Source: Raillietiella orientalis
Taxonomy: Eukaryota
Direction: 5' to 3'
Length of the DNA stretch: 64,000 nt
Assembly (NCBI GenBank): GCA_036172245.1
Contig: JAYWIR010000011.1
Span: forward strand, 496,001-560,000
A program made the position numbers and the translations under genes. Below are positions 10,241 to 36,928 of this stretch, one piece after another. Below the pieces are notes generated by a model. That model had not been told where the DNA came from and searched no databases. It saw only the letters and a list, made by a program, of their open reading frames with translations. Each line of letters begins with the position of its first letter. Position 1 is the first letter of the stretch.

Positions 10241-10280
10241 GAACTCCCTGATGTCCAGTGGAAGAGGCGTGCTCTGCGAT

Positions 10281-10450
10281 GCCGCCCGGATACGCCGGGA
10301 CGTTTATTTAAACTCTTGCATGGTCAATACAACACGTGGTACAAGGCCCCACTAACGGTCAGCATCGCGCCGGACCTGACGGGACAGCGGTACGCAGTGC
10401 AGCGTGACTCTCCTCATCAGTAGAAGGGGAAGGGGGAAAAACCAAAAAAG
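10281..10450 (-). mobile_element. Isolated family A LINE 3' UTR and terminus, fused to viral Rep
   Basis: T/C-rich tract followed by AATAAACGTCCCGGCGTATCCGGGC, the same terminal motif as other family A copies. Confidence 0.75.
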
Positions 10451-10894
10451 TGGGTGTTATTCTTGAGAATGTACAGTTCATCGGCACCATTCTCGATAAG
10501 TTGTGGTATCTGGAAAGAAATGTGTTGAATATAATGAATGCAGCAGTTAGCGTACCTGTTCTTCGTAGCTCTTGGCTTCAGCTTGTTCGGAGAGTGCATC
10601 GTAAACCCAAGCATCTTTGTCCTGCTTGGTGCAGTACCTAATGTTGCTCTGAGCAGAGCCTTTGGCTTTTTCCAGATGGCATTTGTGAAACGGTTTCCTG
10701 CGGAGTCCTGGTAGTGTTTTCGGTCCCTTTAGCTGAAAGTATCCCTGTAGGCGCGGTGTGCCAGTTTCAGCTGTTTCTTTGCCAATGCAGGCAAAGATGC
10801 AGTTACAGCGGCACCACTGTTTTATCGCCTTGAAGTCGTCTTCACTGTAGTTACAGAGAGTGAGGCACCAATTGAAAAATGGTGCGTACGGCAT
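10451..10894 (-). pseudogene. rep: Endogenous CRESS virus Rep, copy 1 (HUH endonuclease domain and start of exon 2; truncated)
   Basis: Motif I WCLTLCNY, GKE..ETGTPRLQGY (motif II region), HLEKAKGS, motif III YCTK; GT-AG intron 10555-10510; exon 2 IPQLIENGADELYILKN. Confidence 0.93.
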
Positions 10895-10985
10895 CGTGCG
10901 TGTACTCGGTAATTCACTGGAAGTAAGACTATGGTGCGGATGTAACTGGTGGCTTATGTACTGGCTAACTGCGTAGTTTTGTTGA

Positions 10986-11017
10986 GCGCAGTCTGGTCAG
11001 TATTACCCAGATTGCGC
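10986..11017 (+). promoter_or_regulatory. CRESS rolling-circle origin stem-loop, copy 1
   Basis: GCGCAGTCTGG-T-CAGTATTAC-CCAGATTGCGC: 11-bp stem with one G-T pair and a NANTATTAC nonanucleotide at 10998-11006. Confidence 0.92.
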
Positions 11018-11308
11018 GGCAATCATCCGGCACCGTGGGAAATTGTTGTGTACGTATGTTTATCTATGGTGTTCGGTTTTTGTCCGCCTACGTGGAAGAC
11101 TTGGGAATGCGGAAAAGCGGTTTGCTTTCAGCCGGAGGGCGTCTGGTGAAACCCGACCTCGTGGAAGACTAGAGGAGTCGGGTGGGCGTGGCCCACCAGC
11201 TGAAGTATGAAAGGGAGCGGGGAAAGGAAAATACGTCAGTGGGCTATCTAGTAGGCGAATGTCCACAGCGGGTCGGTTTGCTTCTCGAAAAAGGGAAAGG
11301 TGGATCGA

Positions 11309-11508
11309 ATGGCGTGTTATCGAAGAGGCGTAAGCTGACCAGATTGCGCTGGGGTTACGGAGCATTCGAGGGTCGCCGTCGTTTTCGCGTCGTGCGCAAC
11401 CCACGTCGGAAGTTTGCGAGGGCTTTGCGTGTGGTGGAGCGATCGGGCGTGGCTGGAGCAACGCACTATGCGTCGCGAAGAACGGCTGACCACGATCCAG
11501 TAAACTGA
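11309..11508 (+). pseudogene. Putative CRESS capsid N-terminus, copy 1 (frameshifted, truncated)
   Basis: ATGGCG then Arg-rich KRRKLTRLRW...GRRRFRVVRNPRRKFAR, divergent from rep across the ori; same position as in copy 2. Confidence 0.65.
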
Positions 11509-11544
11509 TCTTGGATGTTTTTGTATAAGGAGGAGGTCGCGTCT

Positions 11545-11740
11545 TGAGTCTTGCGGCACGGATGAAGCGAAAATCCGCAAATCTGAGGTGGCCAGCCGAA
11601 GTTAGGGAGTGGCTGGGATCCCGGTGTAGTGCGACGCAACGCGTGGCTTTTGCTTGGTCCTTGTGATTTCCTATTAGGGAAAGCCACATTTTCTCTCGCG
11701 TTGGAGTGAACGGACGTTGGCCACGAATTTCTTCCACACT
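11545..11740 (-). mobile_element. Fragment of NeSL/Utopia-like (restriction-like endonuclease clade) non-LTR retrotransposon
   Basis: KDQAKATRCVALHRDPSHSLTSAGHLRFADFRFIRAARL resembles the DQGK...SNHF...TRFADWRFIHRARL block of these elements. Confidence 0.7.
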
Positions 11741-12169
11741 GAGCTGTCTAGCACCTCTCCATGTATTCTTATCTTTGGTTCACCTTCGTCGAAAAAATCA
11801 AAGATGGTGTTCCATTCACTAAAGTTAAAGAACATTTACAGAAAAAATTGGAAGAATTTCAAAAATTCTGATCTGCAATAATAACAACGGGAAGGTCTCA
11901 CTTTCCCGAAAATGAGTATATTGTAGATATCTCTCATTATAAACCTGTTACTAGGCAAGGACTCAATATGATATCCAGAACTGGGTTTAGAACATCTTAA
12001 TAAAACATCACGCCGTGCAAGATACAGTTTTCCTGAAAAAGCTATCAAAGTAATAATTAAATTTATTTACAAAATAAATCGTTTTTTAAGGCAAAAAAAA
12101 GGAAGAGCAGGCAGAGCCAGCGAGAATAATATGGCGGATGTAACACCCACTAATTCAATTAACAAATCA

Positions 12170-13250
12170 GGGACACCACAGCCAACTGGGACGACTGGCC
12201 ATACGCGGCTCACAGAGCCTACTCTTTGTTGTTGAACAACTGATGACTACCCTATTAAGCTGAGAAGGGGGATGGATCACCATCGGCCAAACATGGAGAA
12301 GGAAGCAGACACTGGTGCAGAAGCACCAACTCAAGATCGTGCCTGGAAGCAAGAAACTCTGGGAGGAGGAATCCATCCTAGTAATCCCCTGGTTACTCCC
12401 TGTCCCTAGTGACACAAGGAACTGGATATACCAGAGGCCCAGAGTTACCTTAAGAAGAATAGAGCAGCGGAGACGCGGTGGCTACTACCACCACTCCCGC
12501 CTGCTCAGGTACATCGAGATGGCGAGGGGAAAGCTCACACACAGAACGCGCGAAGTGCGGAAAAACCACAGTAACTAGAGTGGTCCAGGATGAACAAGAA
12601 AAACATCATCTCATACGTGAAGACGATCAAGACACTGATCCCCTCCAGGAAGCTGCCAATCGCTACGGGAGCGACACCATCGACACGTTGGAGATTGGAA
12701 CGACTCTCTGAAGGAGTGACCTGCTGGACACCCAAGAGACCTCCTAATGTTCTACTACGAAGGAATCCGGAGTGGGTCCAGGATGAAATACTTCACGCGC
12801 AACCAAGCAGATGAGGATTGCAGGGCATGTGGTGACGTGGGCACGAGACTTCACGTCTCAGATGTATCAAGACTGGCAAACCCTTAAAAGGGTGATAGGG
12901 CTGCCGAACAGCACGAAGATGGAATTCGTGGCGGGGATGTTCCAGAGAAACGGAAACGCCCCCCGCTACAACCCGACGGTTAGGGCGACCGTCGCCCTGT
13001 TCATCACCGCCATCCTCGTACGATAGCGGAAGATGAGGACCGCCAGTGTAGCCTTCTTTCCCTTGGAAATCCTGAAGAAGAAGATTGCTAACCGGAACTG
13101 TGGACGAATGTAGACCTGGACGTACCGCTACATCCTGAGAAGGATTGAGGATGCTCTCCAGGCATACCCAACGCTCAGTCCCCACTAGTGCAAAACCTTA
13201 GTGTAGTGCAGTGACCCAAAGAAGTGAACATCCAACAGAGAAAACATCTA
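12170..13250 (+). mobile_element. 5'-truncated non-LTR retrotransposon, family B
   Basis: KIVPGSKKLWEEESILVIPW..WIYQRPRVTL shared with 28505-29361; knuckle CRACGDVGTRLH; C-terminal GMFQRN..PRYNP..RNCGR..WTYRYIL shared with other B copies. Confidence 0.75.
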
Positions 13251-14079
13251 GTAAATCTGTGCCCCCTGTTTGAGTGAATGCGTTTTGTAGTATGAATGGA
13301 AAAATGAATTTTCCCACCCTCGAGGTACTGGAAAAAGCGTGGTTCTTCTATTCGAATGATCTATCCCAGTAATTTTTTACCTGATCGTTCTGAAACCGTG
13401 ACGGTAGTTGTAGAAAACGAAGAGGTGGGAGATCGGGAACAATTTGTTGCTTCCGAATGTTGTTCTAGGAAACTGCATCCAACGATTTGGCTATTGTCGC
13501 GCTTAAGTTCCTTGGTTACCATGCCTTCATTATTCTACAAGCGTGTTGCATCACCTTTTTTTTTTTACAGCTTGTTAGATGGCGTGTGCCGTTCTTCAGG
13601 TAGTTTAAAAATAATGGGTTGGTACAACATGTTAACTTGCCTGCTGCTCCAGGTTGATCCAGAGACCGCATCAGGTTTCTTGGATGTGGGGGTTCTTCTA
13701 TATTCAAGCGTGCCCGGTTGCCATTTTTTGACTTGAAAGTTTTCTAGAGGACTGGAAGTGTTCGTTCTTTGCCAAGGTTCTTTGCCCTTTGAGAAAGTTC
13801 ACTGTTCTTGAGGTACTCGGATTCGTTAGTGGAATTATTCACTCGGAAACTCCTTCCTGCGTCATGCCTCACGCTTCGGTTTCTTAGTCTGGGTGCAAGG
13901 AATCTCTTGATGGTTCCATGGAAACAGGATTTTCTCTGTTGCAGAACAACTGTCTGTCTGCAGGACTTTCTCTGTCCTGGGGCAGCGGATAGAATTTGTC
14001 CTTAGATTCTTCTGGACGAGCTACTGCCAAGGATTTTCCCTTAAGAACTGGCATTCCCCACGAATGACAGGATCCGGGT

Positions 14080-15090
14080 CGGAGAAGTGGAACTGCCTGT
14101 GACTCTGCTACGACATCCTCTGCTCGCTGCAGAAAATCCTGGGGAGTCACAGTCTGAGTACTTGGGCGGAGCGTACCTTGCCGCAGCACTGCCCTCCCTA
14201 AGGGAGACTAATATCAGTATGCAGCCAGCGATGTGGGAAGTTTCCAGCGAGAGTGCAGGCAGGAAGAAGGAAACGAGTGGTTGGACCAAGGGACAGCTGA
14301 CTGACGCTGTGATTCCAAGTACCCTTCCACTCGGACTTGTGAGCTGGGGCGAGCTGATGGGTGTTTTCTGTGAAGAGCTGAAGTGGTCTCCAGTGTTCAC
14401 AGACAACAGCACTCCTCTCCTGAAGTGGCAGAGGTTGGCACTTCTGCTGCTGCACTCGGGTATTCCTTGCAGCACCCACCGACATCACTGGGCGTTGGGG
14501 AGTGCGAGCCCGGACTGTCACAGGTGAGGGAAACGGAGATCCCCCCTCCCACACCTGACTGCGGATTGTGTTGCTCTCCGGACTCCGTGGGAACGTTTGT
14601 GGACCACGTCTGGCAACCCCAGGGACGTTGTGAAATCCCTCTTCACGCGGGATGTCCTGCAGCCAGCCGCATCCTCAGCAGCTCTTTGCTGCATCCGCGG
14701 GATTGTGGCGGTCTGCAGCGGCGCTGAAGGAGGACCGAACGGAGGGTATGCCATCAAGTATGCACTTTGCTTTCTGCGGATAGCAGCAGCACGGCCCCAC
14801 CTGGGTCTATCCAGACGAACTTAGCCGGCATCCTGGAAAGGATGCAGAGGACTCCATCCAGCGGACAGTGATTCCTTCCTGGTCCTCCATAATGTTTCCA
14901 TTTATTATTATTTATTTTTTATTGCCTCCCCCCCCACCTCAACTGCCGCCGAAGTGAACCTCGTTGTTCTGCCTACCTGCAGCCCGGAAGGCGCTTTTCT
15001 GAATTGAGCATGGCAGGACTACGTGGCCTATCACAAAAGTCTCAACTTTATTGTTACTTTCAATAAACGCAGCGGCACGACTGGGTGGCA
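14080..15090 (+). mobile_element. 5'-truncated L1/Tx1-like element, family A
   Basis: LAAALPSLR, LKWSPVF..LKWQRLALLLLH, ALCCIRGIVA align to 8281-10240; terminus AATAAACGCAGCGGCACGACTGGGTG at 15062-15087. Confidence 0.85.
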
Positions 15091-16049
15091 ACCAATGGAA
15101 GAGCTGAACATACCCTCGGAGAAACCGGTTTCTGAAAAGCCTTCGCCTCTGTGACGAAGGCAAGCAAACTGCTAACTGTCTCAAAGACGACGAGGGCGCT
15201 TTCCCTGGAGGCTGAAGGGGAAAGCAGCACCCCTAGCGGCCGTGACGGTAGCGTTGACAGCTCTCGCTTCTGGCAATGCCTGGGGTGCCAACGGCAACGG
15301 CAACAGCTGTACGGAGATGATGAGAAGGAAGAACAGAAAGACTTCCCAACTACTTCCACCCACATAGGGGAGGGAGGATGCAGGAACCCAGGCGCGCGAC
15401 AACAAAAATTCTCACCAAGGTCCCTGAAGCCGGTACGTGCGCCGCCGTTGTCGCAAACTGCGACAAGACCGCTGCCGTTGGAGCAGCAGAAGCTTTGGTG
15501 GCAGCATCCACATCGGAAATCGCTGGGGAGGTCGCTGGCCCTCCGGCGATCCACGCTACAGTCCTACTACGCATTGGAGACCGACTGTCACGGTAAACAG
15601 CGCGTCACACGCTTCGCGCGGGTGACGCGGGATATGGTCCAATGAGAGGGAAATGGTCTCCTGCGTTCATGGAATTTTGGACTCAGTCATGTTTCCTTGA
15701 ATAATAGTTGAATGTGAACACCACTCACTCTTAGAGGGATGTAGAGGATCCGATCGACGCTCCAAAATCACGCACTGCAGGTCAGGGCAGATGCTGTACC
15801 TTGTTCTAGGTCAGAGGTCGAGAAGCAGAGAGTTCGGAGTTACGAGGGCTCTCTGTACGTGGTCAGAGGCTTTTCCCTAGTCCGACTTGCAACGGAGGGA
15901 ATTTCTCAATTCAGCAAGAAAACGAACGAAGGATGCTTCGTTGCCAACGCAACATTGGAAAGGTTCCACACTGTTCTTCGTACCACAGGATAGGGAGACC
16001 GCTGCTCCTGCTGGATGCGGTCTCTCTGGGAAAAGCGTCATAGGTGAAT

Positions 16050-17160
16050 GAGGTCCCTAGAAGCAACTCTTGCGGTCCACTGAATGTATCTGTACTAACG
16101 GTCTGTTAGCTTCTTGCATCTCTTGTAGGATGTAGCGGAGGGTCCAGACTGGAACTCCTCCGCACTCTCTGATCCCGATTTCGTGCTTCCAAAGGTCCAC
16201 CAGGATTTCTCCCGCATTCGCCTGTATTCCTTTCTGGGGTTTCATCCTCTCGATGAGGATGCTGCGGACAGAGGAGGCCATGATCACCCTCACCGTAAGG
16301 TTATACAGGGGGATTTTCTGGTCCCTCGAAGAGTCCCCTAAGGATCTCTTGGACAGGGCTTGGAGCCACGTTTTCTGCTTCACCCCTTCGGAATCTTGGA
16401 CGAAGGTCCGTGTCGTAGGCCACGTTGTTGTGGTCTCCGGGCGTAACACCACCAAGCGTCGTGGGTTCAAATACTAGGCAAGAATCGACGCCGAGAGATT
16501 GGGAAGGGTACGTCGTGGGTTCGAGTTCCTCCCGCAAGATGACATTGATTGACCTAAATTCATTCATATGCGGAGCATTTAGTGGTTGAAATAGGATGCC
16601 CCCGATGAGTGGCCGGGATTGGGAGTCGACCTCCAGGTCCTTCCAGGAATCAAGGAGTGAGTAGTTTCCCTCCAGTTGTGCAAAGGAGCGAAGCCCCCTT
16701 CGGAAGGGACCCTCCGTATCATACCATAAAGTAGGTGTGATTGGATTTATAGGGTGGCTCCCTCCTAGGGTACCCCCTATCTTGAAGCATTGCAGGCACT
16801 CTCGAATGGAGTGGAACAGCGTCAAAGAGCTGCGTGGGCAGCCGGGCGAACACGGTTCTTGGAGCACTTGGCGAACCAAAAAAGAGCTGAAAGGAAAGCA
16901 GCGAAGGCAGAAAAGAACCCAAAAGGATTCCCATCGTCATGCAGATGGATGCCGTCTTCGGTGTTACCGCATGCTAAGCGTAGTCCATCATCGGGGTTTT
17001 CGCGATCCCGCGTTGAAGTCCCTTGCCGCACTGAATCGCTTCGCGATCAAACACCAGGAGAGTGTCCTGGATCTCCATAGAACAGCTCGGATTTCGAGAG
17101 GCAGATCCCGATGGCTTGCAGGTCCTTGGAGGGTCGCTTGGACCTTGCCCATGTCATCTG
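16050..17160 (-). mobile_element. Degenerate non-LTR retrotransposon, family B-like
   Basis: C-terminus PLYNLTVRVIMASSVRSIL...GIRECGGVPVWTLRYILQEM is homologous to the other B copies. Confidence 0.7.
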
Positions 17161-17349
17161 TGGCTTCCTATGTAGTGGTTAGCCGCTATAGTCGTTGAAA
17201 CGACATCGTTGACTTGAAGCGGAGCACATGGGGGAGTTCGCAGTGGACTGAGGACTCGGGAGTCGACCTCAGTGCATTACGATTCCTGGCCTTTCCAGAC
17301 TTTGAGTGATTCGTGGGTCATCTACCCATTCATAAGGCGTTTGCTCTAC

Positions 17350-17350
<1 letters not shown>

Positions 17351-17382
<32 letters not shown>
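17351..17382. repeat. (CA)n microsatellite
   Basis: About 16 AC units seen directly. Confidence 0.95.
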
Positions 17383-17385
<3 letters not shown>

Positions 17386-17726
17386 CCCGAGAAATGTTCG
17401 CAGTCCGTCCGCGGTCGTGTCATGTCGTCTCTGGAGCCATTTTTCGCCGATCCATGAGACGATCGCTAAGAGCGGGATCACTACGACCAACTCTTCACTT
17501 TAGAGTTCTCGTCCCTTCGGAACGAAATCACTCCTTGCACTTTGCGCGAGGTCACGTCCACATCTGTCCTCCTCCAGTGCCCCGGTGCTCTGGACAGGGA
17601 GGATGTGGGGCCATCGCTTCCGCGGAGTTCGACCTCGAGCGGGTTCGGTGGAGCACGTGCGGCCGTTCGGCCCGTGAGTTCCCGTTTCCTGATGTGCCGC
17701 GAGTCCTGGAGCGTGGCACCGGTTGA

Positions 17727-18655
17727 CACCTGGTCACACCGGGGCGTTTATTTAAAAAATAAACATGTCTGTGGAAGGACGTTTGATCCTGCCATCCTGA
17801 ATACGAGAAGGCACCTGCCGGGATCTGGCACGCAGACCAGCGGGGCCGCCTCGGCAGCACAAGGGAAGGGGAAACAAACAAAAAGAAAAATAGAAGGAAA
17901 AATACAAAAAAAAAGTGGTGGGTTTGGGAGGGGATCACTGCGTGCTGGAGGGTGTCCTATGTATCCTAGTAAGGATGCCGGCAAGTTCCTGTTTCACTGT
18001 TCCCAGATGGGACCATCTTGACTCTATCCTCACGAATAGGACAGATCAATAGATGACGTTCCTGTCGTTCTGGCCTCCTCTGGCATTATTCTATGCATCC
18101 GCGATCCCGCGTAGGCAGAAAGTGCTGCTAGGGATGCGACCTTTCAGAGTGAAAGCGTCTCCCAGGAAGAGGCACTGATGGAAGCCGGAAACTTCCTTTG
18201 ACTGGCCGGGATTGAGAGTCAACCCTCCGGAAATCCATCGCGCATCTGCGTGGAGCTTGGCACCGGCAAATGCGATGCCTCCCACACTGGCGCCTCCCTC
18301 AGCTCGACAGCGGCAAAACAACCTCAACTGCACCTGCAGTTTCTTGGTGTTCCACACCAGACTTTCTTGAGCGTTCAGTGGACGCTTTGCCACCTTCCCC
18401 AGCATGTTGTAGAAGACCGTGCCAATTAGGGGACTTGGGTGTGAGCACCCCGTTCAAAAGGGTTGTTGGCCTTGCCCTTGAGGGGCAGATTCCCGCTACT
18501 GCACTGTTTGTTTCCGAGACAAGTCCTGTGGTGTTAGTACATCACCAATGCGGACCCTCTTCCACTGTCCTGAACCCACGAGAGCGCAGGACGGTGGAGC
18601 CGATATCCCAATGGCGACCAGCTAGGACTTGGTCGCGTTGATCTTCAATCCGAGT
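17727..18655 (-). mobile_element. Internally deleted L1/Tx1-like element, family A
   Basis: GLKINATKS RT remnant near 18655-18625, FCLRGIA near the 3' end, TGATCCC and T-rich UTR, terminus AATAAACGCCCCGGTGTGACCAGGTG at 17752-17727. Confidence 0.8.
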
Positions 18656-18699
18656 TATAGGGGACTCACCATGCTCCATCTTCTGATCTCATTCCTCCG

Positions 18700-19690
18700 C
18701 CATGACGGAGAACAGATCGTCGTCGTAAGCAAGGTGGGCCGTGGTCTCCCCATTCCAGGATGGGACCCTTGACTCCGTCTCCCTCGCCCGCGTTGGCGAT
18801 CTTGTCGCTACGGTCTCCGCTCATGGTACCAAGCATTGCGGGTTCGAACCCCTCCCTTCCCCCCTCGCGGAGGATCGAGGTCAAGCATAGGGGTGTCGTG
18901 GGTTTTCGAGTCCCTTCCCCTCCTTCGCCTCCCGGATGATGTTGGTTGGCCTGCAGGTTTCGGCTGCGGCGCAGGTGGAAACCAGATGTCCCCATCGACT
19001 GGTCAGGATGGGGGAGTTGACCCTCTAGTCTTCTTCCAGGAATCAAGGATCCGATTTTCTTGGGTTTTCTCCCTCCAGTTGTGAAAATGGAGCTGTATTT
19101 TCTCCCTCCGGGGTGGACCCTTCTTCGCGTTTCCTGAGGCTGGTTGATACCTCCCTCGGAGGGCTGCCTCTCCAGAGTGCGAGTCTCTTCGTGGAGCGAT
19201 CCTTTGAAAAATTGGGAAGCGTCCCTTAGGGGTTCTCTTCAGAGGAGGAAACAAGGAGCAGTTCCCTCGAGGGTTTCCTCTGGAGAAGAAACGAGTGCTT
19301 CCCCTCCGGGGGCTCCCTCCAGAGAGAATGAGGAAGCTAATGTCTGCCATGGAAATCATGAGAAGATTGATCCATAGGGGAATCAACATTAGGAACAGCG
19401 GACGAATCCCATTCTGGACTTATGGCTACATCTTGAGGAAGACTGAGAATACTGCCCAGGAGTCTGCAATGTCCAACATTCTTTAGTGACCGGATCCCGG
19501 AGACATAAGCTTCGGATTTGAGTAAAAAAAAGTGACAGTGCATCGAATGACAACCTGCGATTGCATAATGTGCACAGCACGACAGACACCCGTACCATGC
19601 TCGAGCGACAAAGATACCAGTTTTCCTCAGTCCGACAAGAGGTGGGGTGATTTTACTTAATCCACGTGCATACAAAAGCGATTACAAAAA
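18700..19690 (+). mobile_element. Degenerate family B non-LTR element with 3' UTR
   Basis: GINIRNSGRIPFWTYGYILRK then TAGTGACC, as at 30805; 5' boundary approximate. Confidence 0.7.
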
Positions 19691-19877
19691 CGCAATACAC
19701 CCAAAGAACATTCTAAGTGGTTTACTACTCTTTTCACTCAATTCAACGTTTTAGTTTGCAAGGGATTAAATAAAATCACCCCACCTCTTGTTGGACTGGG
19801 GAAAACTGTGGTATCTTTGTCGCTGGAGCATGGTGGGGTTGTCTGTCATGCTGTGCTCAGTATGCAATCGTAAGGTT
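19552..19877. repeat. About 120-bp inverted repeat (arms 19552-19673 and 19754-19877)
   Basis: Arms share CGATTGCATA, AGCGACAAAGATACCA and CAAGAGGTGGGGTGATTTTA in opposite orientation. Confidence 0.9.
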
Positions 19878-21060
19878 TGGGAAATGATGGGCATATGTAT
19901 ATGGAGTTTTAAATCCTGTTTATGAAGGCATACAGGAATTTTCTTCTCTACTAATAAGTTGGTTCCTGACATTTGAAATCAGTTTCAAGCTTCTCATATC
20001 TCTATGAGCCTGAATTCTTTAATATTCTCGAAGAATACTGCAGAAATGTTTTGGTTCCTAGTATCTTTCTTGCAACTTGAATATTCGTTAGTCAAGCAAA
20101 TTATATGGATAATTGATGTCGTTATATCTGACTTTTTCGAGCTTGCTGCACACCTTTTGAATAGATTCAGTAAACTAATGCTTTTGTTAAAGCAGTTGGC
20201 ATGAAACATCAAGACTATCAACGCGCATCTTGTCGCAGGATTTCGATACTTTTTGAAATAAGACCGAAGCTATATTCTTCGCTTTATCCTCTCGCGAGAT
20301 ACTTTCAGAAGATGAAACAATTTTTTTTAGCTTTTCAGTGTTTCCCTTTTTTTCAAAGAAACATTCACTCCTGAGAAATGTTTCAAAACAATTTTCAATA
20401 GAATTTTCAGTATTATTTTGAGTTATTTTGAACAATAAAATCAAAAAGAAGAATTTCTTGATTTATGATGATCTGTATTTGTTATTTTCATTTTTATTCT
20501 TCTTAAATTTGCAATGTTCCTATGTTCTCCAAACAATAGTATTCGAAAAGCAATTGAATTATTATTCTTCAGTGACTTTTACTGACGAATAAATAGATTT
20601 TCACATTCCTAGGTATATTTTAATAAATTTTGGCAAAGTGAATGGCATGCATTGCCTTCAGTGAGCGCTTGTTATTTCCTGTAGCTTTGGTTCATGCTTT
20701 GGTTCATGTTTTGAATGTTGAATGATCAATATTTAATTTGTAAATCATTCATTTGTAATCATGAAAACTTGCAATATTAACGATAGATAAGGCAGAGTTT
20801 TCTGCAGTTGTCAACAGCTTAGTGTTTAGTTTGGATAAGTTGAGGTAGATTCTTTAAAGATAGTGGATTGTTTCAGTAATTTGTTTCTTTGGTTTTAATA
20901 CTTCTGTAAACTGTACTAGTTCGTATTTTGGATTAATCTAGTGAATAATTCCATCGTTTATTTCTATATGAACGCATGTTTCACTGAAGTTTTCTGTGTT
21001 TAAGAGTAGCAGCTCCAAACAGTATTTAGTGTATTGTTCTATTCACGTGTTCAACCCAGT

Positions 21061-24988
<3,928 letters not shown>

Positions 24989-25849
24989 GTGTTTCAGTGA
25001 GCAGTAATTTAAATAAAATCGCTTACATCACAGCATGGTTGTTCATGAAAAGTCTGATAAAACATATAAGAGTCTTTTCTGACACTTGAAAAAATAAATT
25101 TGCGATAAACTTACTCGTGTTAAATTCCCACCATTTCAGATTCCATCTGCTTTATTTTATCGACCCCCCTTTAATGTTCTACAAATGTAACTCACCAGTA
25201 TGCTTTGCTGGCTGGACAGAACTATGTAATGAAACATTTAAGTATTCCTTACTTAAAACATTTTAATGGTGGGAATTGTGGATATCTACATGGAATTATG
25301 GCTAAAGGAAAAATTGAAGCGTTTGCAAGCTTATGCAATGAAATTCGAATGTGAATTGGACCTGAGCGCGGATGCTGGGGCTGCAAAACATCATTGCAAA
25401 AAGATATGACCTGTGCTCACAAATAAGTTTGTCAGGGAAGTGTCTGATGTGAAGTTGATGAAAACTTTGAAATGAAATCCAACATAGATTTGTACAGTAT
25501 GCCGATTGAGGATAACGCTGTATTGGCAGCTACCTTCAAAGTTCAAAGGAATCTCCGATATCGGTAGTAATCGCCTACGAGGTTTTTTTTTTGCTTCGAT
25601 TATCCTGCATGTCGTCGACAGAGTTGTGGACGAACGTTCAAGGGTTCGGTTTGTGGATGTAACCGCCACCAGTGATTGCGCGACTCCGGGCTTGCAGTTG
25701 CGGCGGGGGGGAGGGTGCCAAAGAAGAATGGCATAGATGCAGAACGTGAGATGGTAGGTAATGGCTGCAAGAATGTTTCCGCACGGCAGTCCTTGCCAAG
25801 TTGTCAACCACACCAGTCCTTGTGGTGTGGTTGTTTTCGTCTGCCTGTT

Positions 25850-27349
25850 TTTCGCATCTAAAGGGAATGCCCGACAACCTGCTACCAGACACTCAGAAAG
25901 GGCGCAGACGATCTGCTGCTGCTGCTCCCCGTGTTCACCCCGGCGTCTGCACTTGAGAGCTTCGAGTTTCTCATCCCCGGAACGAGCTTGAAAGTGAACA
26001 GGGAGAAGAAGTCTTCCTTGATCCCAGTTGGGGTGGCGTGGGCAGAATGACCGCACTGGATTCGCTTGGGGATCCCCACGGGCGGGTGATTGAAGTACCT
26101 TGGCGTTCCGTTGCGGGTCTTCTGCGCTGCAGAAGCCTGATCAGACTGTCTTCAGAAGGACGAGCAGGTGCTCGGTTCGTTCTAAGGAGACGGATTCCAC
26201 TTGCCGAAACGAACCGCGGTGCGGAACACTTTCGTGCCTTTTCTCCTTGGCATCCTGCTTTTTGATTGCCTTCCACCGGAGAGCATCAGAAAGCTGACGA
26301 ATGACTTCCTTAGGATCCTTCTTCAGAGCAACGGGAGGTCCTGAGTCTGCCTGAAGGATTTGTGTGCTATCGGGACAGCGGCCTCGGCCTCCTGACGCTG
26401 GAGGAAATGGAGCTTCAGCTCCAATTTCGGATCCTGCGCACCTCCTCGTCCGGCAAGCCACCATCAGCGAAGGGTTGCATCCTTTCTTACTCGTCTCCCA
26501 CTGCAAACTGCAGCTCCAGCGCGTGGCAACCTCGACAACACCTGACATTCATGGCACCTGGATCTCCTGCCGTCCTGTGAACGGTACTGTCTGGCTGCAG
26601 GAAACCATTCGCACGATTCGCAGGTGGACGAGGAACCAAGAGCGATGCCCGGAACAGGTGCAGCGATTCCTGTATGCGCCTTACAACAGCTGCTCTCTTC
26701 GGGAAATCCTTGAACATCCCGAGAAGAGCGCGTGGGCAGGTAGAACTTCCCTTGCCGCAGCGCTGCCCTCCCTGAGGGAACACATAGGCAGCAACCTTCC
26801 GGCTAGATGCAAAGCCTCCATGGAAATGTCCGACAGGAGTAGAGCACTGCGTGACTGCAAGAAGGGTCAGCTTTCATACACTGTGACCCCGAGTGCCTCA
26901 CCTCGAGGACTTCTGTGCTGGGGCAGGCTGCTGGATATTTCGCAGGAAAGTACTACAATGGTTTCTAGTACTTTTGGGCACTCACACCCTCCCTTAAAGT
27001 CGCAGGAGTCGGCGTTGATTCCCCTGAACTAGGATCCTCTTTGCAACGTCCACCGTTAGACCCGAGGGTATGTGAGTCCGAACTTTGGCAGATGTGGGCG
27101 CGTGAATCCCTCCCGCACCAACTTGTGAATTGTGTTGCCCACCAGTCCAACACTTTTCCTCGACTTTAATAAGCCTTCAATGACCTTCAAGGACGCTTTC
27201 AGACCCTCCCTCGTGCGCGACGCCCTCGGTCAGCAGCCTTGCTAGGATCTCTCTGCCGCCTACGTGGAACGAGGGCGATGCAAGAGGGGCCCGAACGACA
27301 GGTGTGCCACATCCACTTTGTCGTCCGCTTCATGAGGATGGGAACAAGA
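25850..27349 (+). mobile_element. Family A LINE, 5' part (interrupted by CRESS genome)
   Basis: ADDLLLLLP, LKVNREK, KYLGVP, RDSGLGLLTLE, LAAALPSLR, ESLPHQLVNC align to 8281-10240; frameshifted. Confidence 0.88.
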
Positions 27350-28009
27350 TTTTTGCAGGAGTGCACGTAGATTGCTCCTCTTTTTAGATATGAGTATTTC
27401 GCCACGGTTGTCTTGCCGGCGTTTCCAATGGTGTCGTAGTACGAGTATATTTGTCATTCGCTGGCAGGTTTGCGAATGACGTCAAAGAGGTCCATTGTCC
27501 ATTTGTCGAAGGTTGGCGGGTGGGTTTGAATGAGTTCTATTTCTTGATAGGCGAAAGCATTCCTTGATGAACTTGATATCGCGTGAGCAGAATTTTGCAT
27601 GGTTTTCCAAAATAAATGTTTCGTCTGCGCCTGCTTTAATGAGTTCGACTACCTAAAAAGGGATGGCGTTAGTTGAGAGAGGAGGTTAATTGGACTCACT
27701 TCCGTTCGTAATCATGCCGAATGTCCAAGCTTGTTCATCCTCCTTTGTGCAGTACCTCAAGTTGCTTTGTGCGATGCCGCGACTCTTCTCCAAGTGGCAC
27801 TTCTGGAAGGGCTTTCTGTGCAGCCCTGGCAGAGTGCGTGGCTCCTTTAACTGCCCTTGAAGAAGACGCGGAGTGCCGGTTGTTGCAGTTTATCGTCCAA
27901 AAATGCAGAACCTGCACTTGGTGCGGCACCAGCATTTGATTTTTCGAAAATCGCCTTCGGAGTAGTTGTTCAATGTGACGCACCAATTGAAGAAGAGTCC
28001 GTAAGGCAT
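27350..28009 (-). pseudogene. rep: CRESS Rep N-terminal part, copy 2 (HUH domain, intron, Walker A)
   Basis: MPYGLFFNWCVTLNNY, TGTPRLLQG, HLEKSRG, YCTKED; intron 27699-27653; YYDTIGNAGKTTVAKY (Walker A at 27426-27409); frameshifts and stops present. Confidence 0.9.
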
Positions 28010-28089
28010 CGTGGAATTCACCGATGGTATGACTGTGGATCGGTGCTGGTAGGTGGTTTATATACGCCGGAAGTGAGTAGTTTGTGGCG

Positions 28090-28121
28090 CAGCAGTCTGA
28101 TGAGTATTACCCAGATTGCTG
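28090..28121 (+). promoter_or_regulatory. CRESS origin stem-loop, copy 2
   Basis: CAGCAGTCTGA-T-GAGTATTAC-CCAGATTGCTG; nonanucleotide at 28102-28110; TATATAAA on the minus strand about 50 nt upstream of the rep ATG. Confidence 0.88.
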
Positions 28122-28326
28122 TAAACCGATCCGGTTGGAAGTTGCAAAGATGTATTTTTAGGAAGTGGTCTGTCAAGTCCGAGATCGCGAAGGACTTACG
28201 CGGAAAGCCTGCAGGCTTACCAGATGTTTCCGCTGGTGAAATCCGACCTCGTGGAGGGCTTGGAAAGTCGGATGGGCTCCGCCCACCAGCCACCAAATAG
28301 ACAAGGGGAGAGGGGATAGGTGAAAA

Positions 28327-28505
28327 ATGGCGGTACGCTGTCAATAGCAGCAGGATGGAAGCGCCTCGCCGGTTTTCTTCTCGTAAACGAAGAAGTGTTT
28401 AAGAAGAGGCCTGCAGCTAAGCGTCGGCTTTTGCATAAATTTGGTTGTGATGCGCGTAAGCGTAGGCGTCGGTCCAACGCAAGAAGAACAAAGTCGTTGC
28501 TGTCG
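28327..28505 (+). pseudogene. Putative capsid Arg-rich N-terminus, copy 2
   Basis: ATGGCG in the same context as copy 1; RFSSRKRR and KKRPAAKRR...ARKRRRRSNARRTK across frameshifts. Confidence 0.6.
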
Positions 28506-29361
28506 CCAGGATGAACCAGGGACCACCAGAGAAGTTGAAAAGCTGCAGAGGAAAACACTATGGGGGCATTATCGCCCAAGAGTACGGTTAAAACCCCTGT
28601 GTCATCCCAGGGAAGAGGGCGGTTCCGGGATGAAGTCGCTTGCACATTCCATGGAAATCATGGATTCACGACACATCCTGAACATCACTACTCACTGGGA
28701 TGACTGGCCGTACGCGGCGCATAGGGCCTACGCGTTGTTGAACAACTCGACAGGTCTGATGACTGCGCTGCTAGGCCGAGCAAGGGAATGGATCAACATC
28801 GACCCCAGATGGAGGGGAAAACAACGGTTGGTGCGAAAGCACAAGATCAAGATCGTGCCAAGAAGCAGGGAGCTCTGGCAGGATGAATCCATGCTGGTGA
28901 TCCCGTGGATGCTTCCGGTCCCTCCTGACACGAGAAGCTGGATCTACCAGCGGCCCAGAGTTACCCTGCAAAGAATCCAGGAATGGCAACGAGGAGGATA
29001 CCTACATCCCACTCGTATACTTCGGTATATAGAGATGATGTTAGGTAGGTTTACCCACAAGACTCGCGAAGTATGGAAAAACCACGACTTCGCGTGGTCC
29101 AGGGCAACCAAGATGAACTACCGAAGAATTTTCAAAGAAGGGGAACAAGATACCAGTGCCCTCCAAGAAGCTGCCGATCGCTACGGATCAACCTGTTAGC
29201 GATCGGCACGATGCTCTGGAGGAGTGACCTACCACCGGACACCCAGGACAACCTCCTGATGTTCTATCATGGAGGAATCCTGAGCGGGTCCAGATTGAAG
29301 CATTTTACTGGAAGACGGGATGACGAAGACTGCAAAGCGTGTGGCGACATTGACAGTGTAC
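28506..29361 (+). mobile_element. Internal fragment of family B non-LTR ORF2 inside the viral capsid gene
   Basis: LCHPREEGGSGM (L1/Tx1-type motif), WIYQRPRVTL, knuckle CKACGDIDSV; homologous to 12170-13250; no 3' UTR. Confidence 0.82.
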
Positions 29362-29669
29362 GATGGTATCAAAAGGGTATACTGTATTGAGTTAAAGGTT
29401 TGCCAACTGGGAAGAGTGTAAAGTATCCTTGGCTGGATAGTGGCGAGGAAAGCGGCCTGGATATGGAAATGAAAGTTCAGATAGGGTTCAGCCGTGTACA
29501 TGTAATGAAGCATATGTCTGGAGTTGATATATCAGATGAGCTGAAAGACGGTTGTTCCCGAGGTGTGTGTCCAAAGCAAGGGACATTGAACAAAGGTTAT
29601 CCTGTGTATAGAGTAACGAGAAAACTCTATCTGGAATCTAAACAAACGAGAGACGTTGGGTTTTATTGA
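29362..29669 (+). pseudogene. Putative capsid C-terminal part, copy 2
   Basis: Non-LINE frame WYQKGILY*VKGLPTG...MKVQIGFSRVHVMK ending convergent with the rep stop; assigned mainly by position. Confidence 0.5.
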
Positions 29670-29792
29670 CTGATGTGGCTATTGATGGGAGACAAAGTAC
29701 TTATTAAAGAGTCAGGGGCTCGTTCTGTTCTAGGGCTTGAAGAACAAGCCCATGGAAGAATGGCTCCTTCCTCATTCATTGTCCAATGGGTG

Positions 29793-30045
29793 TTATGTTT
29801 CTGCTCTTGCAATATTCTTGATAACCCATCTGTCACTGGACATCTTGGAGTAGTCAGGTTCCCAGTTTGCGAAGATGATGATGTGGGGAACAGCAAAGTA
29901 CTTGATTGTACCTTGATATTTGGAGTCGAATACAATTCCATTTTTTAGACTCTCGATGAAGCCGTACCTGACGTGCTCTTGGCTGTCCCGAGTTACGTCA
30001 ACAACGATGATCAGCTCGCCGTTATAGATGTGGGCAGCGTCTTGT
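29793..30045 (-). pseudogene. rep: CRESS Rep C-terminal SF3 helicase part, copy 2
   Basis: QDAAHIYNGELIIVVDVTR (Walker B), YGFIESLKNG..SKY, PHIIIFAN (motif C), SDRW; resembles nanovirus/alphasatellite-like and related unclassified CRESS helicases. Confidence 0.92.
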
Positions 30046-30331
30046 TCCCACTCTGGAGAATATGCTAAGTGAACTTGCCTGCATCCTCGAAAAGAAACAG
30101 AGGACTGCCCCTGGCAGAACGTGATCCCTTCCTGCATCCTCCCAAGTGTATTAATTTTTTTATTTTTATTTCTGCTTCTTTTTGTTTGCTCCCTCCCTCT
30201 GCTGCCTTTGCGGACCTCACCGGTCTGTTCACCGACAACTTGGCAGAATCCTTTGAAAATTGACGTGTTTGGACCATCGGTCCAAAGACGTCAATTTCAC
30301 CCGAGTACGTCCCGGCGTACTCGGGTGAAAA
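30043..30331 (+). mobile_element. Family A LINE 3' end (continuation of 25850-27349)
   Basis: TCCCAC..GAACTTGCCTGCATCC..GTGATCCC, T-rich UTR, terminus CCCGGCGTACTCGGGTGAAAA. Confidence 0.85.
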
Positions 30332-30419
30332 GGCACTCAGGATAATCTCATTTCTATCACGGAGTCATTCCGAGTTGTTCCAAAATTAAACATTGGACAG
30401 GCAACTGACCAGAGAGCTC

Positions 30420-31010
30420 CGCAAGGCATATGGAGCCAAGGAAAACCAGCTCCACATACATCCCCATGTTCCCGACGCGGAGCCAGGATTGAGCAAAGCT
30501 GAAGGCGATGACCGGCCGGCAGGTCCAAACGAAGACCTTGGTGGGCATGTTTAAAGGGAACGCAAACGTTCCCAGGTACAACCCCATGATCTGCACCACC
30601 ATGTCCCTCTTCATCGCGAGCATCGTGATAAGGGCAAAGTTGCAGAACACCAACGTGTCAGTGCCTGCTGCCAATATCTTACAAGGCCTCATCAGGAGGG
30701 AGATTGGGATCAGGAACTGCGGCAGAGTATCCGCCTGGACTCATCGCTACATCTTGAAGAAGATGGCGGATGTGGATCCAGTGAGTGGAATGCCAACCAG
30801 AGCCTAGTGACCCCTACGCCAAAAGGAAATTTCCAGAGTTAACAAAAAGTGACAATTACTGACTCGAAGTGTTATGTGCAAAAACACTCGAGAAAGTGTC
30901 TACAAAATTGGTGATTGTAATTACCGTTTTCAAAGTTGATGAACAGATTCATCTCCTCGGCCGGTCGGACTGGGGACATTTTTGTATATTCCCCGTTAAA
31001 CAGCCGTATC
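30420..31010 (+). mobile_element. 5'-truncated family B element with 3' UTR
   Basis: GMFKGNANVPRYNP...GIRNCGRVSAWTHRYILKK, then TAGTGACC. Confidence 0.78.
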
Positions 31011-34685: not shown

Positions 34686-36928
34686 TTAGTCATCTCTCAA
34701 TTTATAAGGCAAAATGGTAACTTTGAGATCGAGACCCATTTGACTTCGAAGCATAGATGCTGCATGACTCATCTGAATAGCACAATCAGGATGCATATTG
34801 CCAGGGAGTAAGGTGCACTCCCTTTCCAGAATAGAAGCTAATCCTTCCAACAATTCGTAAAATCCCAAAGACAGAGCACCTTTACGTATCCGGTTCAATT
34901 CCTAATAGCTCAATAGAATCTACAATGTAGTTACTACACTTACTTTATAAAAATGTTGAATTTTTTCTGGTAGCTTGCGTGCATGTCTTAACAATTTTTG
35001 AATATCAGTTTGAAGGCCAGATTGCCTTATCCAAACTACACAATTCTGTGAATAACTTCTCTTTTCAATAACTCTCTGTGCAGAAATGTTATCAGGAAGA
35101 GGAGGTCCTAGTCTTCGCAAATCACCTAACCAAGGAACTGGCTGATGACCTGCAAAATACTCTGGAATGCATGATCTTTTCCAACTTACCTGGCACAAAT
35201 AACGTTAACATAAGATTAGCTTTCTTGCGATTATCAGCCCAAGAATAGAGAATACCAAACCAGTCAGCATCCACTGTGCACAGTGCAACCATATTTCTTA
35301 CTTTAAGTGCACCATGCAGGAGGACACAAAATGATGGAATAGTTTCCTCCTCCTCTTTGATATCATTTTCAGGAGCTACTGGACATACTAAATGCCTTGA
35401 AAGAGCAGGTGGAGATGCCACATCAGAAACACTCATGAAGCCACAAATGTCTATGGTTTCAGATATGCACTTATATACAACATCAAAATCATGAACACGA
35501 TGATATGGTTGAGGAATAGGGGACAATATGACAGGAGAAGATAGTTTACCACAACAAATCTGTCTTTGAAATGAACGAAAATGTTCTTCTGCCAATTTAT
35601 TGAACATGGTATTGACAGTCTGCAATCTCTTAAAAGAATTCTGATCACCCTGCAATTCATACCAGCTGTGTTATAGGATTATCTGGGAAATACACATCTC
35701 CTCCAGGACTATTTGCTTCTATTATTTGTTTGTAAAATGGAATGCTTTTTTTTATTGACTCTTCATTGGGATCAGCAATACACATAACATGCAACTTGCA
35801 TGGAAATGAGAAAATGATAGGGGCTTTCTGCTGAAGGCTAATACTACCATCAGTTACTAAAACAATCTACAAAATCGAAAACCACGTATTACATTACTAA
35901 AGTCTCCATCTGAAGCATATAAGTTTAAAAAATGTCAAAAAGTTTACATGTTCTTGTCTATTCTCCCACTTTTTTTTTTTTTTGTAACTCCATAGTTCAA
36001 GAAAATGATAATTCTTAAAATTTGTTTTCAGTGTTACTCTTATGATGCTATAAAGGGTAGTATACATGAAACAAAGACAAATGGCATAAAAAGAAATTAC
36101 TTATCGGAAAACGAGAGTTTTACTTTAATTGAAATTCCTCTTTTTTTGTTGCCTAGTTTATGCATCCCAATTCACGAAAACAATACGTGGCCTTTCAAAC
36201 AACCACTTTTTCTATAAGCTAATAACGCATTTACTATTATCAAGGTTACTAGTATACAAAATTACATTATCTACACCATACCTGACATGGAAAGTTGGAT
36301 CCCCATTCCTCGAGAACAACACCATTCACTCCAATTAACGCATCTTCCACAGAAGTTTTATCATATATCTCCAATTTGTTAAGAGATTGGTCGATTTGTT
36401 CAAAATCTCGAGTGAATGCAACCATAACTTCGTACAATGACGAAAAAACAACCTATTGATAAATATACAATGCAGAAAATTCAAAAACTTATCAAGTTGA
36501 CAAATTTAATTTTTGCATCATTTACAATCAACTGGATTTCACTGTAAATCTATTTATGGCAAGCATGAATCCTTCATTGACTTCTATGCTTGACTTTCTC
36601 AAAACAGTAGAATAGACTTGTTTATTGCAATAGAAACCTGTAAATTGAAACATTCCACGCAAATTACTTATGACATACATGGACAATATAAATATAGGCT
36701 TAAAAGTATTTAGATCCACTAAAATAGAACATGACATAATACCGATTCTTTTCAAAGTCTTACCAAAGAAGCAAATTCCAATTTGCAATGCTGAGCCATA
36801 AAAGTTATAAAGTGTTTCAAACCATTAGTGGCTAATTGGATACAAGTTTCTGATTCTTGTTTTTCAGATGAACACTTGATAGGTCTCAACATAGACAAGG
36901 AAACATCTAGTAAAAGCACAGTAGGCAT
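34686..36928 (-). CDS. INTS14: Integrator complex subunit 14 (VWA9)
   Basis: MPTVLLLDVSLSMLRP..KLEFASL, PSFCVLLHGALKV, WFGILYSWAD, KRSYSQNCVVWIRQSGLQTDIQKLLRHARKLPEK, LERECTLLP..HPDCA; multi-exon. Confidence 0.95.

Follow-up and report, generated by a model that had tools for sequence, protein, structure and literature searches.

What happens when the genome of a small circular virus ends up in an animal chromosome inside a retrotransposon: at which point is the circle opened, and by what route is it joined? This question is raised by a locus in a 64,000-nt stretch of Raillietiella orientalis contig JAYWIR010000011.1 (positions 496,001-560,000, forward strand), hereafter the window, whose own positions serve as coordinates throughout. 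At 27352-30047 the window holds a decayed, 2696-nt genome of a CRESS virus (one whose circular, single-stranded DNA encodes Rep), which interrupts copy A of a long interspersed nuclear element (LINE) family named here LINE-E. This endogenous viral element (EVE) is referred to as locus A and a second, partial one as locus B. An earlier note on this DNA had read locus A as one full turn of a viral genome, opened within the helicase and embedded in a LINE, and had offered for it either integration of the circle or capture by the LINE reverse transcriptase (RT). We find that the insert is exactly one unit of the circle. Its source was probably a circular viral DNA that was opened once and captured by end-joining at a break within a bystander LINE.

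The Insert Is Exactly One Circularly Permuted Unit

The Rep reading frame of locus A runs on the minus strand and is circularly permuted within the insert (Table 1). Its endonuclease part (27707-28045, minus strand) matched the Pfam family Viral_Rep at 1e-7, with 32.6 bits against a cutoff of 26. Relatives were taken from a HMMER profile search of 1.84 billion proteins with the endonuclease domains of loci A and B as the query, which gave 5126 hits at E <=0.001; the best 150 of these were used. When both Rep pieces were added, each as a fragment of its own, to an alignment comprising 11 full-length relatives, VTLNNY and YCTK aligned with the FTLNNY and YC(S/T)K of these proteins and the Walker A motif GNAGKT with their GNSGKT or GNTGKS, and all three superfamily 3 (SF3) helicase motifs, GNAGKT, IIVVD and IIIFAN, lined up with those of the relatives. 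Among the best 150 relatives, the C-terminal piece showed 50% identity over 80 amino acids to residues 234-313 of P0004 (blastp, E 5e-27), and the piece carrying Walker A matched at E 3e-8 to 1e-4 (blastp). Searched singly against PDB, Pfam and one IMG/VR Rep, the helicase pieces gave no usable match; close relatives came from the HMMER search only.

The same alignment places the two viral ends to the codon. Column 240 is the last of the left piece and column 241 the first of the right piece, whose residues at the junction are EQDAAH; between the two there is neither gap nor overlap. This means that the circle was opened between two helicase codons, that nothing was lost or duplicated, and that the insert is exactly one unit. 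Pairwise comparison (blastp) agreed with this in five of the seven relatives that matched both pieces: the last K of the left piece and the first E of the right piece map to adjacent residues in P0040, P0024, P0073, P0129 and P0004, and the ends are 6-7 residues off in P0018 and P0041, both of which carry indels. A comparison of the clade affinities of the two halves was weak, since endonuclease and C-terminal scores were uncorrelated among the 106 full-length hits (rho -0.02). In this weak comparison P0004 ranked third for the endonuclease and first for the C-terminus; of the 13 listed hits of the Walker A piece at E<1e-4, seven fell among the top 15 C-terminal hits.

A loop of type NANTATTAC was found in the hairpins of both EVEs, as GAGTATTAC in locus A and CAGTATTAC in locus B. 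As the nonanucleotide lies on the plus strand, this is the virion strand and Rep is encoded on the complementary strand; at locus A, LINE sense and virion strand point the same way. The break lies between Walker A and Walker B, ~750 nt away from the nonanucleotide, which is internal to the insert and intact.

The Rep frame is decayed in its left part. We observed an in-frame TAA at 27890-27892, a frameshift at ~27515-27535 and an in-frame TGA at 27454-27456. Motif II reads TPRL(L)QG in both EVEs (27830-27850 and 10740-10760, minus strand), with Arg in the place of the first His. This His is invariant in the 11 aligned relatives and, by the pattern used, present in 129 of the 150 best database matches, with Arg in none; of the 21 matches outside the pattern, five show His in a near variant. 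The Arg may reflect decay, parallel in both EVEs, or may be a trait of the virus lineage.

Locus A carries a 51-nt candidate GT-AG intron in rep, the removal of which would keep the frame. Locus B has a candidate GT-AG intron of 46 nt at the same rep position (10510-10555, minus strand), also frame-restoring. Among database Reps, the closest ones lack an intron.

The Interrupted Target Is a 5′-Truncated LINE Copy

Sequences to the left of 27350 and to the right of 30047 belong to the same repeat family, LINE-E, which is present in the window in four copies (A to D). In copy B the reading frame bears the RT motifs RQGDSLSPLLF, YADD and GLRVNRTKS and matches RVT_1 (Pfam, 1.5e-8, 35 bits vs. a cutoff of 29.6). 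Long relatives of LINE-E combine RVT_1 with an APE endonuclease domain (Exo_endo_phos) in 12 of 12 cases and carry zf-RVT in nine of the 12, so that by its domain content LINE-E is classed as an APE-type non-LTR retrotransposon. Copy A is truncated at its 5′ end inside the RT domain, has several frame breaks in its 5′ part and reads GADD where YADD is expected. Upstream of 25907 it bears no relation to copy B, in which the RT continues further. At the 3′ end of copy A (30257-30330) two adjacent, near-perfect hairpins are seen (dG -34.9 kcal/mol, z -10.9), which were not observed at the homologous place in copies B, C and D.

To place the insertion point, the left and right ends of copy A were aligned as separate fragments to the other three copies, all of which span it unbroken (B at ~9925-9985, C at ~14766-14826, D at 18045-17985 on the minus strand). 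The left part of copy A ends with ...GAGGATGGGAACAAGA at 27349. At this junction the LINE reads ...GGGAACAAGA (27340-27349), followed by TT (27350-27351) and by viral TTTGCAGG from 27352, with ..GAIYVHSCK as the minus-strand translation. At the right junction viral ...GTCTTGTTC extends to 30047, and the LINE resumes with CCACTCTGG at 30048; on the minus strand this end reads EQDAAHIYNGELIIVVD. Across the insertion point copy D reads CAAGA-TGGT-CCCATCTGG, and copies B and C read variants of it; compared with these sister copies, copy A lacks ~4 nt (TGGT) of LINE sequence.

No direct repeat that could represent a target-site duplication (TSD) was found around the viral segment, comparing 27349/27352 with 30047/30048, and no A-run indicative of poly(A) is present at either of its ends. 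Microhomology at either junction amounts to only 0-2 nt. We did observe a perfect 10-nt inverted repeat over both junctions, GGGAACAAGA at 27340-27349 and TCTTGTTCCC at 30040-30049. Eight of its ten right-hand bases are viral codons, and among 20000 random window pairs 12 had a repeat of this kind. Templated synthesis in the course of joining may have left this trace; the repeat fitted no simple priming scheme among those tried.

Most of what the earlier note had described of this anatomy is upheld. The strings it quoted were all found where it had placed them, and the uninterrupted LINE copy it had pointed to at ~18033-18003 is our copy D. Its unit-length, circularly permuted CRESS genome in a LINE is confirmed by the adjoining alignment columns and by the RVT_1 and APE domains of the LINE-E relatives, and its continuous helicase, rebuilt by joining the ends, by the alignment with the 11 relatives. 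A break within the helicase, far from the origin and lacking a TSD, agrees with the ~750 nt and the missing direct repeat given above, and GAGTATTAC on the plus strand bears out that virion strand and LINE sense are the same. The insert itself stands, yet its limits, given as 27350-30045, are corrected to 27352-30047, and the LINE copy spans 25907-30333.

Copy A itself lies within older repeat sequence. The segment 30334-30830 is 60.6% identical over 429 nt to 12750-13153 (blastn, E 9e-21), its first 68 nt match 29240-29311 (E 1e-5), and it is assigned, together with a stub on the left side of copy A, to a LINE-X-type tail termed LINE-X2. A candidate TSD, CACTCAG, flanks copy A (25890-25896 and 30334-30340), with a weak statistical standing, as 517 of 20000 random pairs (2.6%) gave as much by chance. 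Judged from these flanks, LINE-E copy A appears to have inserted into the older LINE-X2 tail in the manner of ordinary target-primed reverse transcription (TPRT) and to have lain open to a later event. The order of nesting would then be LINE-X2 tail, LINE-E copy A, virus and finally the LINE-X fragment found within the virus, the last of these possibly arriving before integration. We also considered that X and Y belonged to a single LINE split in two at locus A. This was rejected, as 30334-30830 overlaps the zinc-knuckle region already present at 29240-29355.

The Viral Turn Contains a Fragment of a Second LINE Family

Downstream of the origin, on the plus strand, an ATG followed by an Arg-rich N-terminus is common to loci A and B at the same position, which is the site expected for a capsid start; the homology of locus A to locus B (10911-11291, blastn) stops at 28387. 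No capsid was recognised beyond this Arg-rich start: segments 28300-28560 and 29340-29810 gave no match to Pfam or to a set of 80 viral loci and no usable one to Atlas. For this search six-frame translations were used; nothing appeared at an E of 1 or better in the 80 viral loci, nothing meaningful in the window, and no match to the Pfam family Circo_capsid.

Downstream of the putative capsid start, the segment from ~28510 to 29355 is not viral but a piece of a second LINE family of high copy number, LINE-X, as judged from its alignment to open reading frame 2 (ORF2) of LINE-E, its copy number and its other copies in the window. A 270-residue frame in it aligned to LINE-E ORF2 residues 132-219 (blastp, E 2e-6) with the same spacing to CKACGD, and the fragment is 68.8% identical to 12162-12843 near locus B. 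Sequencing depth was taken from contigs of one DNA sequencing run, with 0.07 of the sampled words. Summed contig depth was 40-70 over the LINE-X fragment, ~2 over exact unique flanks and 0.7-4.3 over the Rep parts, and contigs covering the fragment departed from the window sequence past both its ends. Against the protein collection the piece gave no match at near or longer lengths. Because the fragment is without its own 3′ end, it is not a plain TPRT insertion. Of the one full turn described in the earlier note, the unit length is retained, but the turn is not purely viral: ~850 nt of it (28510-29355) derive from this second LINE.

The following 437 nt (29356-29792) had no match in the window, the 80 viral loci, Pfam or Atlas, and may hold what remains of the capsid gene, the 3′ intergenic region or both. 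Assuming that LINE-X is an addition, the viral genome would measure ~1.85 kb. The closest Rep relatives are found on contigs of 2.0-2.4 kb, and 79 IMG/VR relatives mostly on contigs of 1.9-2.7 kb. With the nonanucleotide on the strand of capsid sense and Rep complementary to it, the layout appears to be ambisense and cyclovirus-like, an assignment made from layout and size.

A Second, Related Virus Was Integrated Separately

Locus B retains part of rep, the origin hairpin and a capsid start; helicase Walker motifs are absent from it. Between the 3′ end of LINE-E copy B and its start lie ~100-170 nt; on its far side come an AT-rich stretch and then a LINE-X tail. The origin stems of the two EVEs differ by two compensatory pairs. 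Between the Rep sequences of A and B we calculated a proportion of synonymous differences (pS) of 0.86, which is saturated, and of nonsynonymous differences (pN) of 0.23, compared with a neutral-looking pS of 0.27 and pN of 0.29 for a LINE-E segment of the same loci. The possibility that A and B are duplicates of one another was rejected on the saturated Rep pS, the compensatory changes in the origin and the neutral look of the LINE-E segment. By these comparisons, A and B are best described as two related viruses that integrated separately and had diverged under purifying selection. That two related, cyclovirus-like viruses with introns were integrated independently in a 17-kb span points to a long association between this virus group and the host lineage.

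How the Circle Was Opened and Joined

In the explanation that we regard as probable, a small ambisense CRESS-DNA virus would have entered the animal germ line, and its circle, most simply the double-stranded replicative form, would have been broken once within rep between Walker A and Walker B. The linearised virus would have been end-joined, by illegitimate recombination with 0-2 nt of homology, at a chromosomal break inside an existing 5′-truncated LINE copy that took no active part. A 3′-truncated LINE-X piece would have been placed in the capsid gene after, or possibly before, integration, and the element would then have decayed. End-joining is a documented fate of extrachromosomal DNA. 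A single break in the circle yields exactly one genome length with permuted ends, and end-joining explains the absent TSD, the ~4-nt loss of LINE sequence and the two extra nucleotides. We prefer it because it needs no precise return to a template, because it explains a small deletion together with minimal homology, and because a LINE target is unremarkable: LINE-derived pieces with a name sum to ~8.2 kb of the 64 kb, that is at least ~13% of the window, so that hitting a LINE calls for no special mechanism. The illegitimate or single-crossover integration of the circle that had been suggested for this locus comes close to this explanation, whereas capture by the LINE RT, suggested beside it, found no specific support, as TSD and poly(A) are missing and the intron is kept.

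Several observations weigh against end-joining of an opened circle. At codon resolution no viral nucleotide was lost, which end-joining permits and a single round of copying on the circle predicts. In both EVEs virion strand and neighbouring LINE sense run parallel (2/2, 25% by chance), and the inverted 10-mer over the junctions (GGGAACAAGA/TCTTGTTCCC) is not explained by plain end-joining. The LINE-X piece that lacks its 3′ end demands at least one further non-standard event. Finally, none of the contigs of the sequencing run bridges either junction.

Three routes lead to the same product: end-joining, a repair polymerase that copies the ssDNA circle once, and a LINE RT that jumps onto the circle and returns. 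Both copying routes predict an exact unit length, because the polymerase would stall at its own start. That a chromosomal 3′ end, either LINE cDNA extended by the LINE RT or a broken end extended by a repair polymerase, copied the virion ssDNA once and returned is unlikely in our estimate. If true, CRESS fossils that are of unit length, independent of the origin and oriented by strand would be the footprint of a capture by copying, distinct from both end-joining and Rep nicking, and the two EVEs of the window, with their virion sense parallel to the adjacent LINE tails, would be two products of this route.

Copying by a host DNA polymerase, in a template switch resembling microhomology-mediated break-induced replication (MMBIR) or synthesis-dependent strand annealing (SDSA), is a rather doubtful version of this event. 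A 3′ end at a break or a stalled fork within the LINE copy (bottom strand ...CCAGAGTGG-3′) would have switched onto the virion ssDNA, copied it up to its own start and returned nearby. The exact unit length (columns 240/241) fits this scheme, the virion (+) strand would template the observed bottom strand, the return would have taken place within ~4 nt of the departure, and the inverted 10-mer hints at templated synthesis. However, microhomology of 0-2 nt makes for poor priming, and the product is the same as that of an end-joined, unresected linear duplex.

It is improbable that the LINE RT itself made the jump during TPRT of LINE-E, passing from the RNA (30048) to virion ssDNA for one turn and back to the RNA (27349), so that LINE and virus arrived in one event. 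Such a jump would be consistent with LINE sense parallel to the virion strand, with an insert of exactly one unit, with the one candidate TSD around the whole unit of LINE and virus, and with a density of frame breaks that, by a rough count, is alike in the LINE part and in Rep; the second EVE, ~100-170 nt from another LINE-E 3′ end, has the same orientation. Yet a LINE copy already in place yields the same flanks and TSD, and nothing requires the jump. Two switches with a precise return are needed, or four if the internal LINE-X piece is counted. The composite was not amplified, the depth of Rep being 0.7-4.3 against ~2 for unique sequence, and a full-text literature search revealed no case of a circular ssDNA virus copied by a LINE RT; what it did yield was the LINE-associated amplification of circoviral elements that had been integrated before (PMC6372831).

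We give somewhat less credence still to a retrocopy of a composite, in which the virus was end-joined into a LINE-E copy elsewhere and the composite was then retrotransposed to locus A. The candidate TSD brackets the whole composite, and LINE transcription would run antisense to rep, so that the rep intron would survive; a precedent is provided by carnivore circoviral elements in LINE-1, as described in the part of PMC6372831 used here. Against this, Rep has the contig depth of a single-copy sequence and no composite family was found at >=85% identity, and since copy A is 5′-truncated inside the RT, the source must have been a longer composite.

An assembly artefact, with a contig of an episomal or contaminating virus misjoined into a LINE repeat, is very improbable. 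Repeats invite misjoins and no read passes over either junction, but the insert bears marks of decay (a frameshift, two premature stops, and foreign LINE sequence within it), both its ends fall on one point of the circle, and the LINE flanks are contiguous to within 4 nt; one misjoin would not yield these three features together. Exact 151-nt contigs of the run, which looks independent, are present at 26951-27101 and 27189-27339, and the latter ends 10 nt from the junction.

Rep nicking at the origin is excluded by junctions (27352/30047) far from the nonanucleotide, and classical LINE retro-insertion of a transcript by the lack of poly(A) and TSD, the retained intron and the presence of both gene strands and the origin; contrary to a processed-transcript template, the candidate intron is kept, genes lie on both strands and the ends fall inside the helicase coding region.

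Comparison with Known Systems

End-joined extrachromosomal DNA, such as nuclear mitochondrial DNA segments (NUMTs), plasmid, adeno-associated virus (AAV) or hepadnavirus DNA, typically shows no TSD, microhomology of zero to a few nucleotides, a small deletion of the target and junctions unrelated to an origin. Locus A is similar in its absent TSD, its minimal microhomology, its small target deletion and its junctions away from the origin, and differs in that nothing was lost at the viral ends and that an inverted 10-mer lies over the junctions. In LINE-mediated retro-insertions, including endogenous bornavirus-like nucleoprotein elements (EBLNs), processed pseudogenes and U6-L1 chimeras, a foreign template is proposed to be copied by the LINE RT, and chimeras form by template switching. 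These are RNA-derived and intronless, with poly(A) and TSD, and have the foreign part 5′ of the LINE 3′ end with no return; none of this is seen at locus A.

Cycloviruses are ambisense, encode Rep opposite to the nonanucleotide strand and have genomes of ~1.7-2.0 kb. Locus A resembles them in orientation and in the (N)AGTATTAC loop, its candidate Rep intron has a counterpart in some of them, and its size would be near 1.8 kb if the LINE piece is an addition; it is different in having no Circo_capsid match. As it stands, the insert measures 2696 nt, ~850 nt of LINE included. The sections of PMC6186406 relied on here describe Rep introns in the CRESS genomes of arthropods, and EVEs of cyclovirus-like type in mites and in a nematode.

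Whole-genome integrations of cressdnaviruses are likewise on record. According to the portion of PMC10193959 drawn on here, EVEs of saurians and insects include complete krikovirus genomes; among 36 Cap EVEs, 17 were paired with Rep, and such paired Rep and Cap EVEs were taken as whole-genome integrations. As there, locus A has a germ-line Rep decayed by stops and the remainder of a small circular ssDNA genome. With reference to the same portion, what sets it apart is that the ends are placed to the codon, that the insert is exactly 1.0 genome, broken in the helicase, that its capsid gene is recognised no further than the Arg-rich start, and that it holds a LINE fragment and a candidate Rep intron. 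Tandem circovirus genomes in cyprinid fish, and carnivore circoviral elements embedded in LINE-1 and inferred to have been amplified with it to 10-20 copies by retrotransposition, are reported in the excerpted text of PMC6372831. The carnivore elements, as depicted there, share with locus A the fusion of a Rep-derived EVE with a LINE; in contrast, at locus A Rep is at single-copy depth, the whole genome rather than rep alone is present, and the LINE copy is dead and 5′-truncated. A CRESS EVE in LINE debris is in itself expected, and such cases are already described in other hosts.

What locus A adds is that both viral ends are placed to the codon, so that the opening of the circle can be read off directly as an event within rep, distant from the origin and with no duplication of the target. 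The case thereby leaves end-joining versus copy-once synthesis as a sharply posed question.

Features and Setting of the Window

Coordinates of the features are collected in Table 1.

Table 1. Annotated features of the 64,000-nt window, in order of position.
Feature	Position	Strand	Basis and remarks
Smg8/Smg9-family exons	3630-6447	+	
LINE-E copy B	8250 to ~10300	+	Continuous across the insertion point; frame of 552 codons containing one stop
Partial CRESS EVE, locus B	10420-11780	- (Rep)	Viral_Rep 1.7e-12; 64% amino acid identity to locus A
Locus B, Rep exon-2 remnant	10420-10509	-	
Locus B, candidate intron	10510-10555	-	
Locus B, Rep exon 1	10556-10894	-	
Locus B, origin hairpin	10986-11017	+	CAGTATTAC at 10998-11006; 11-bp stem, dG -11.2, z -3.8
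Locus B, putative capsid start	11259	+	Arg-rich N-terminus
5′-truncated LINE-X tail (X′ + Y′)	12162-13179	+	Contiguous; right of EVE B
LINE-E copy C	14088-15095	+	Continuous across the insertion point
LINE-E copy D	18170-17720	-	Continuous across the insertion point
M24 metallopeptidase exon	23782-24210	+	
LINE-X2 left stub (older LINE-X-type tail)	25868-25899	+	~30 nt like X just upstream of the restart in the right flank; weak
LINE-E copy A, 5′ part	25907-27349	+	tblastn to copy B 8432-9601, E 7e-62; blastn 69.8% identity
TT at left junction	27350-27351	.	Filler, or 1-nt overlap with LINE
Rep exon 2, up to 19 residues beyond Walker A	27352-27648	-	GNAGKT; degenerate linker; ends ..IYVHSCK at the junction
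Candidate GT-AG intron in Rep, 51 nt	27649-27699	-	Frame kept on removal; direct reading
Rep exon 1, HUH endonuclease domain	27700-28009	-	Motif I VTLNNY, motif II TPRLLQG, motif III YCTK; Pfam Viral_Rep
Origin stem-loop	28089-28122	+	11-bp stem, GAGTATTAC (28102-28110) in the loop; dG -7.3, z -2.6
Putative capsid start	28355-28500	+	ATG at 28355, Arg-rich N-terminus; stops and frame changes; direct reading
LINE-X fragment, ORF2 region after RT up to zinc-knuckle-like CKACGD	28510-29355 (~850 nt)	+	blastp, depth, copies in the window
Rep C-terminus, 84 codons and stop	29793-30047	-	Walker B IIVVD, motif C IIIFAN, ..DRW; no internal breaks
LINE-E copy A, 3′ part to 3′ end	30048-30333	+	Alignment with copies B, C and D
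LINE-X2 tail, then region Y	30334-30830	+	Degenerate zinc knuckle at ~30412-30440; blastn
Integrator subunit 14 (IntS14) gene	34923-35670	-	

Two GC-rich islands, at ~8.0-20.0 kb and 25.6-30.8 kb, are composed of repeat debris and lie in AT-rich host DNA of ~30-40% GC, which holds the exons of the Smg8/9-family, Integrator subunit 14 and M24 peptidase genes. The island with locus A is situated between the M24 peptidase exon and the IntS14 gene. Within the islands (8000-20000 and 25600-30830) seven of the eight LINE pieces that could be oriented are on the plus strand and both rep genes on the minus strand. By analogy, they give the impression of a graveyard in which retroelements and EVEs have piled up on one strand, resembling the sources of Piwi-interacting RNAs (piRNAs) in some animals.

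At the right end of the window (57604-64000) we observed a tandem array of 20.5 copies of a 312-nt unit with 95% match, which extends past the window end. It reads open on the minus strand over 2317 codons, and the first 484 residues of this frame had no Pfam match. A long palindrome of 313 nt (19558-19870), 78% identical to its own reverse complement, adjoins a LINE-X-type Y fragment at 19346-19471. Directly upstream of LINE-E copy B, the segment 8033-8245 is an inverted duplicate of LINE-E positions 9660-9875; as the same sequence is present also in the direct part, this is not a simple 5′ inversion.

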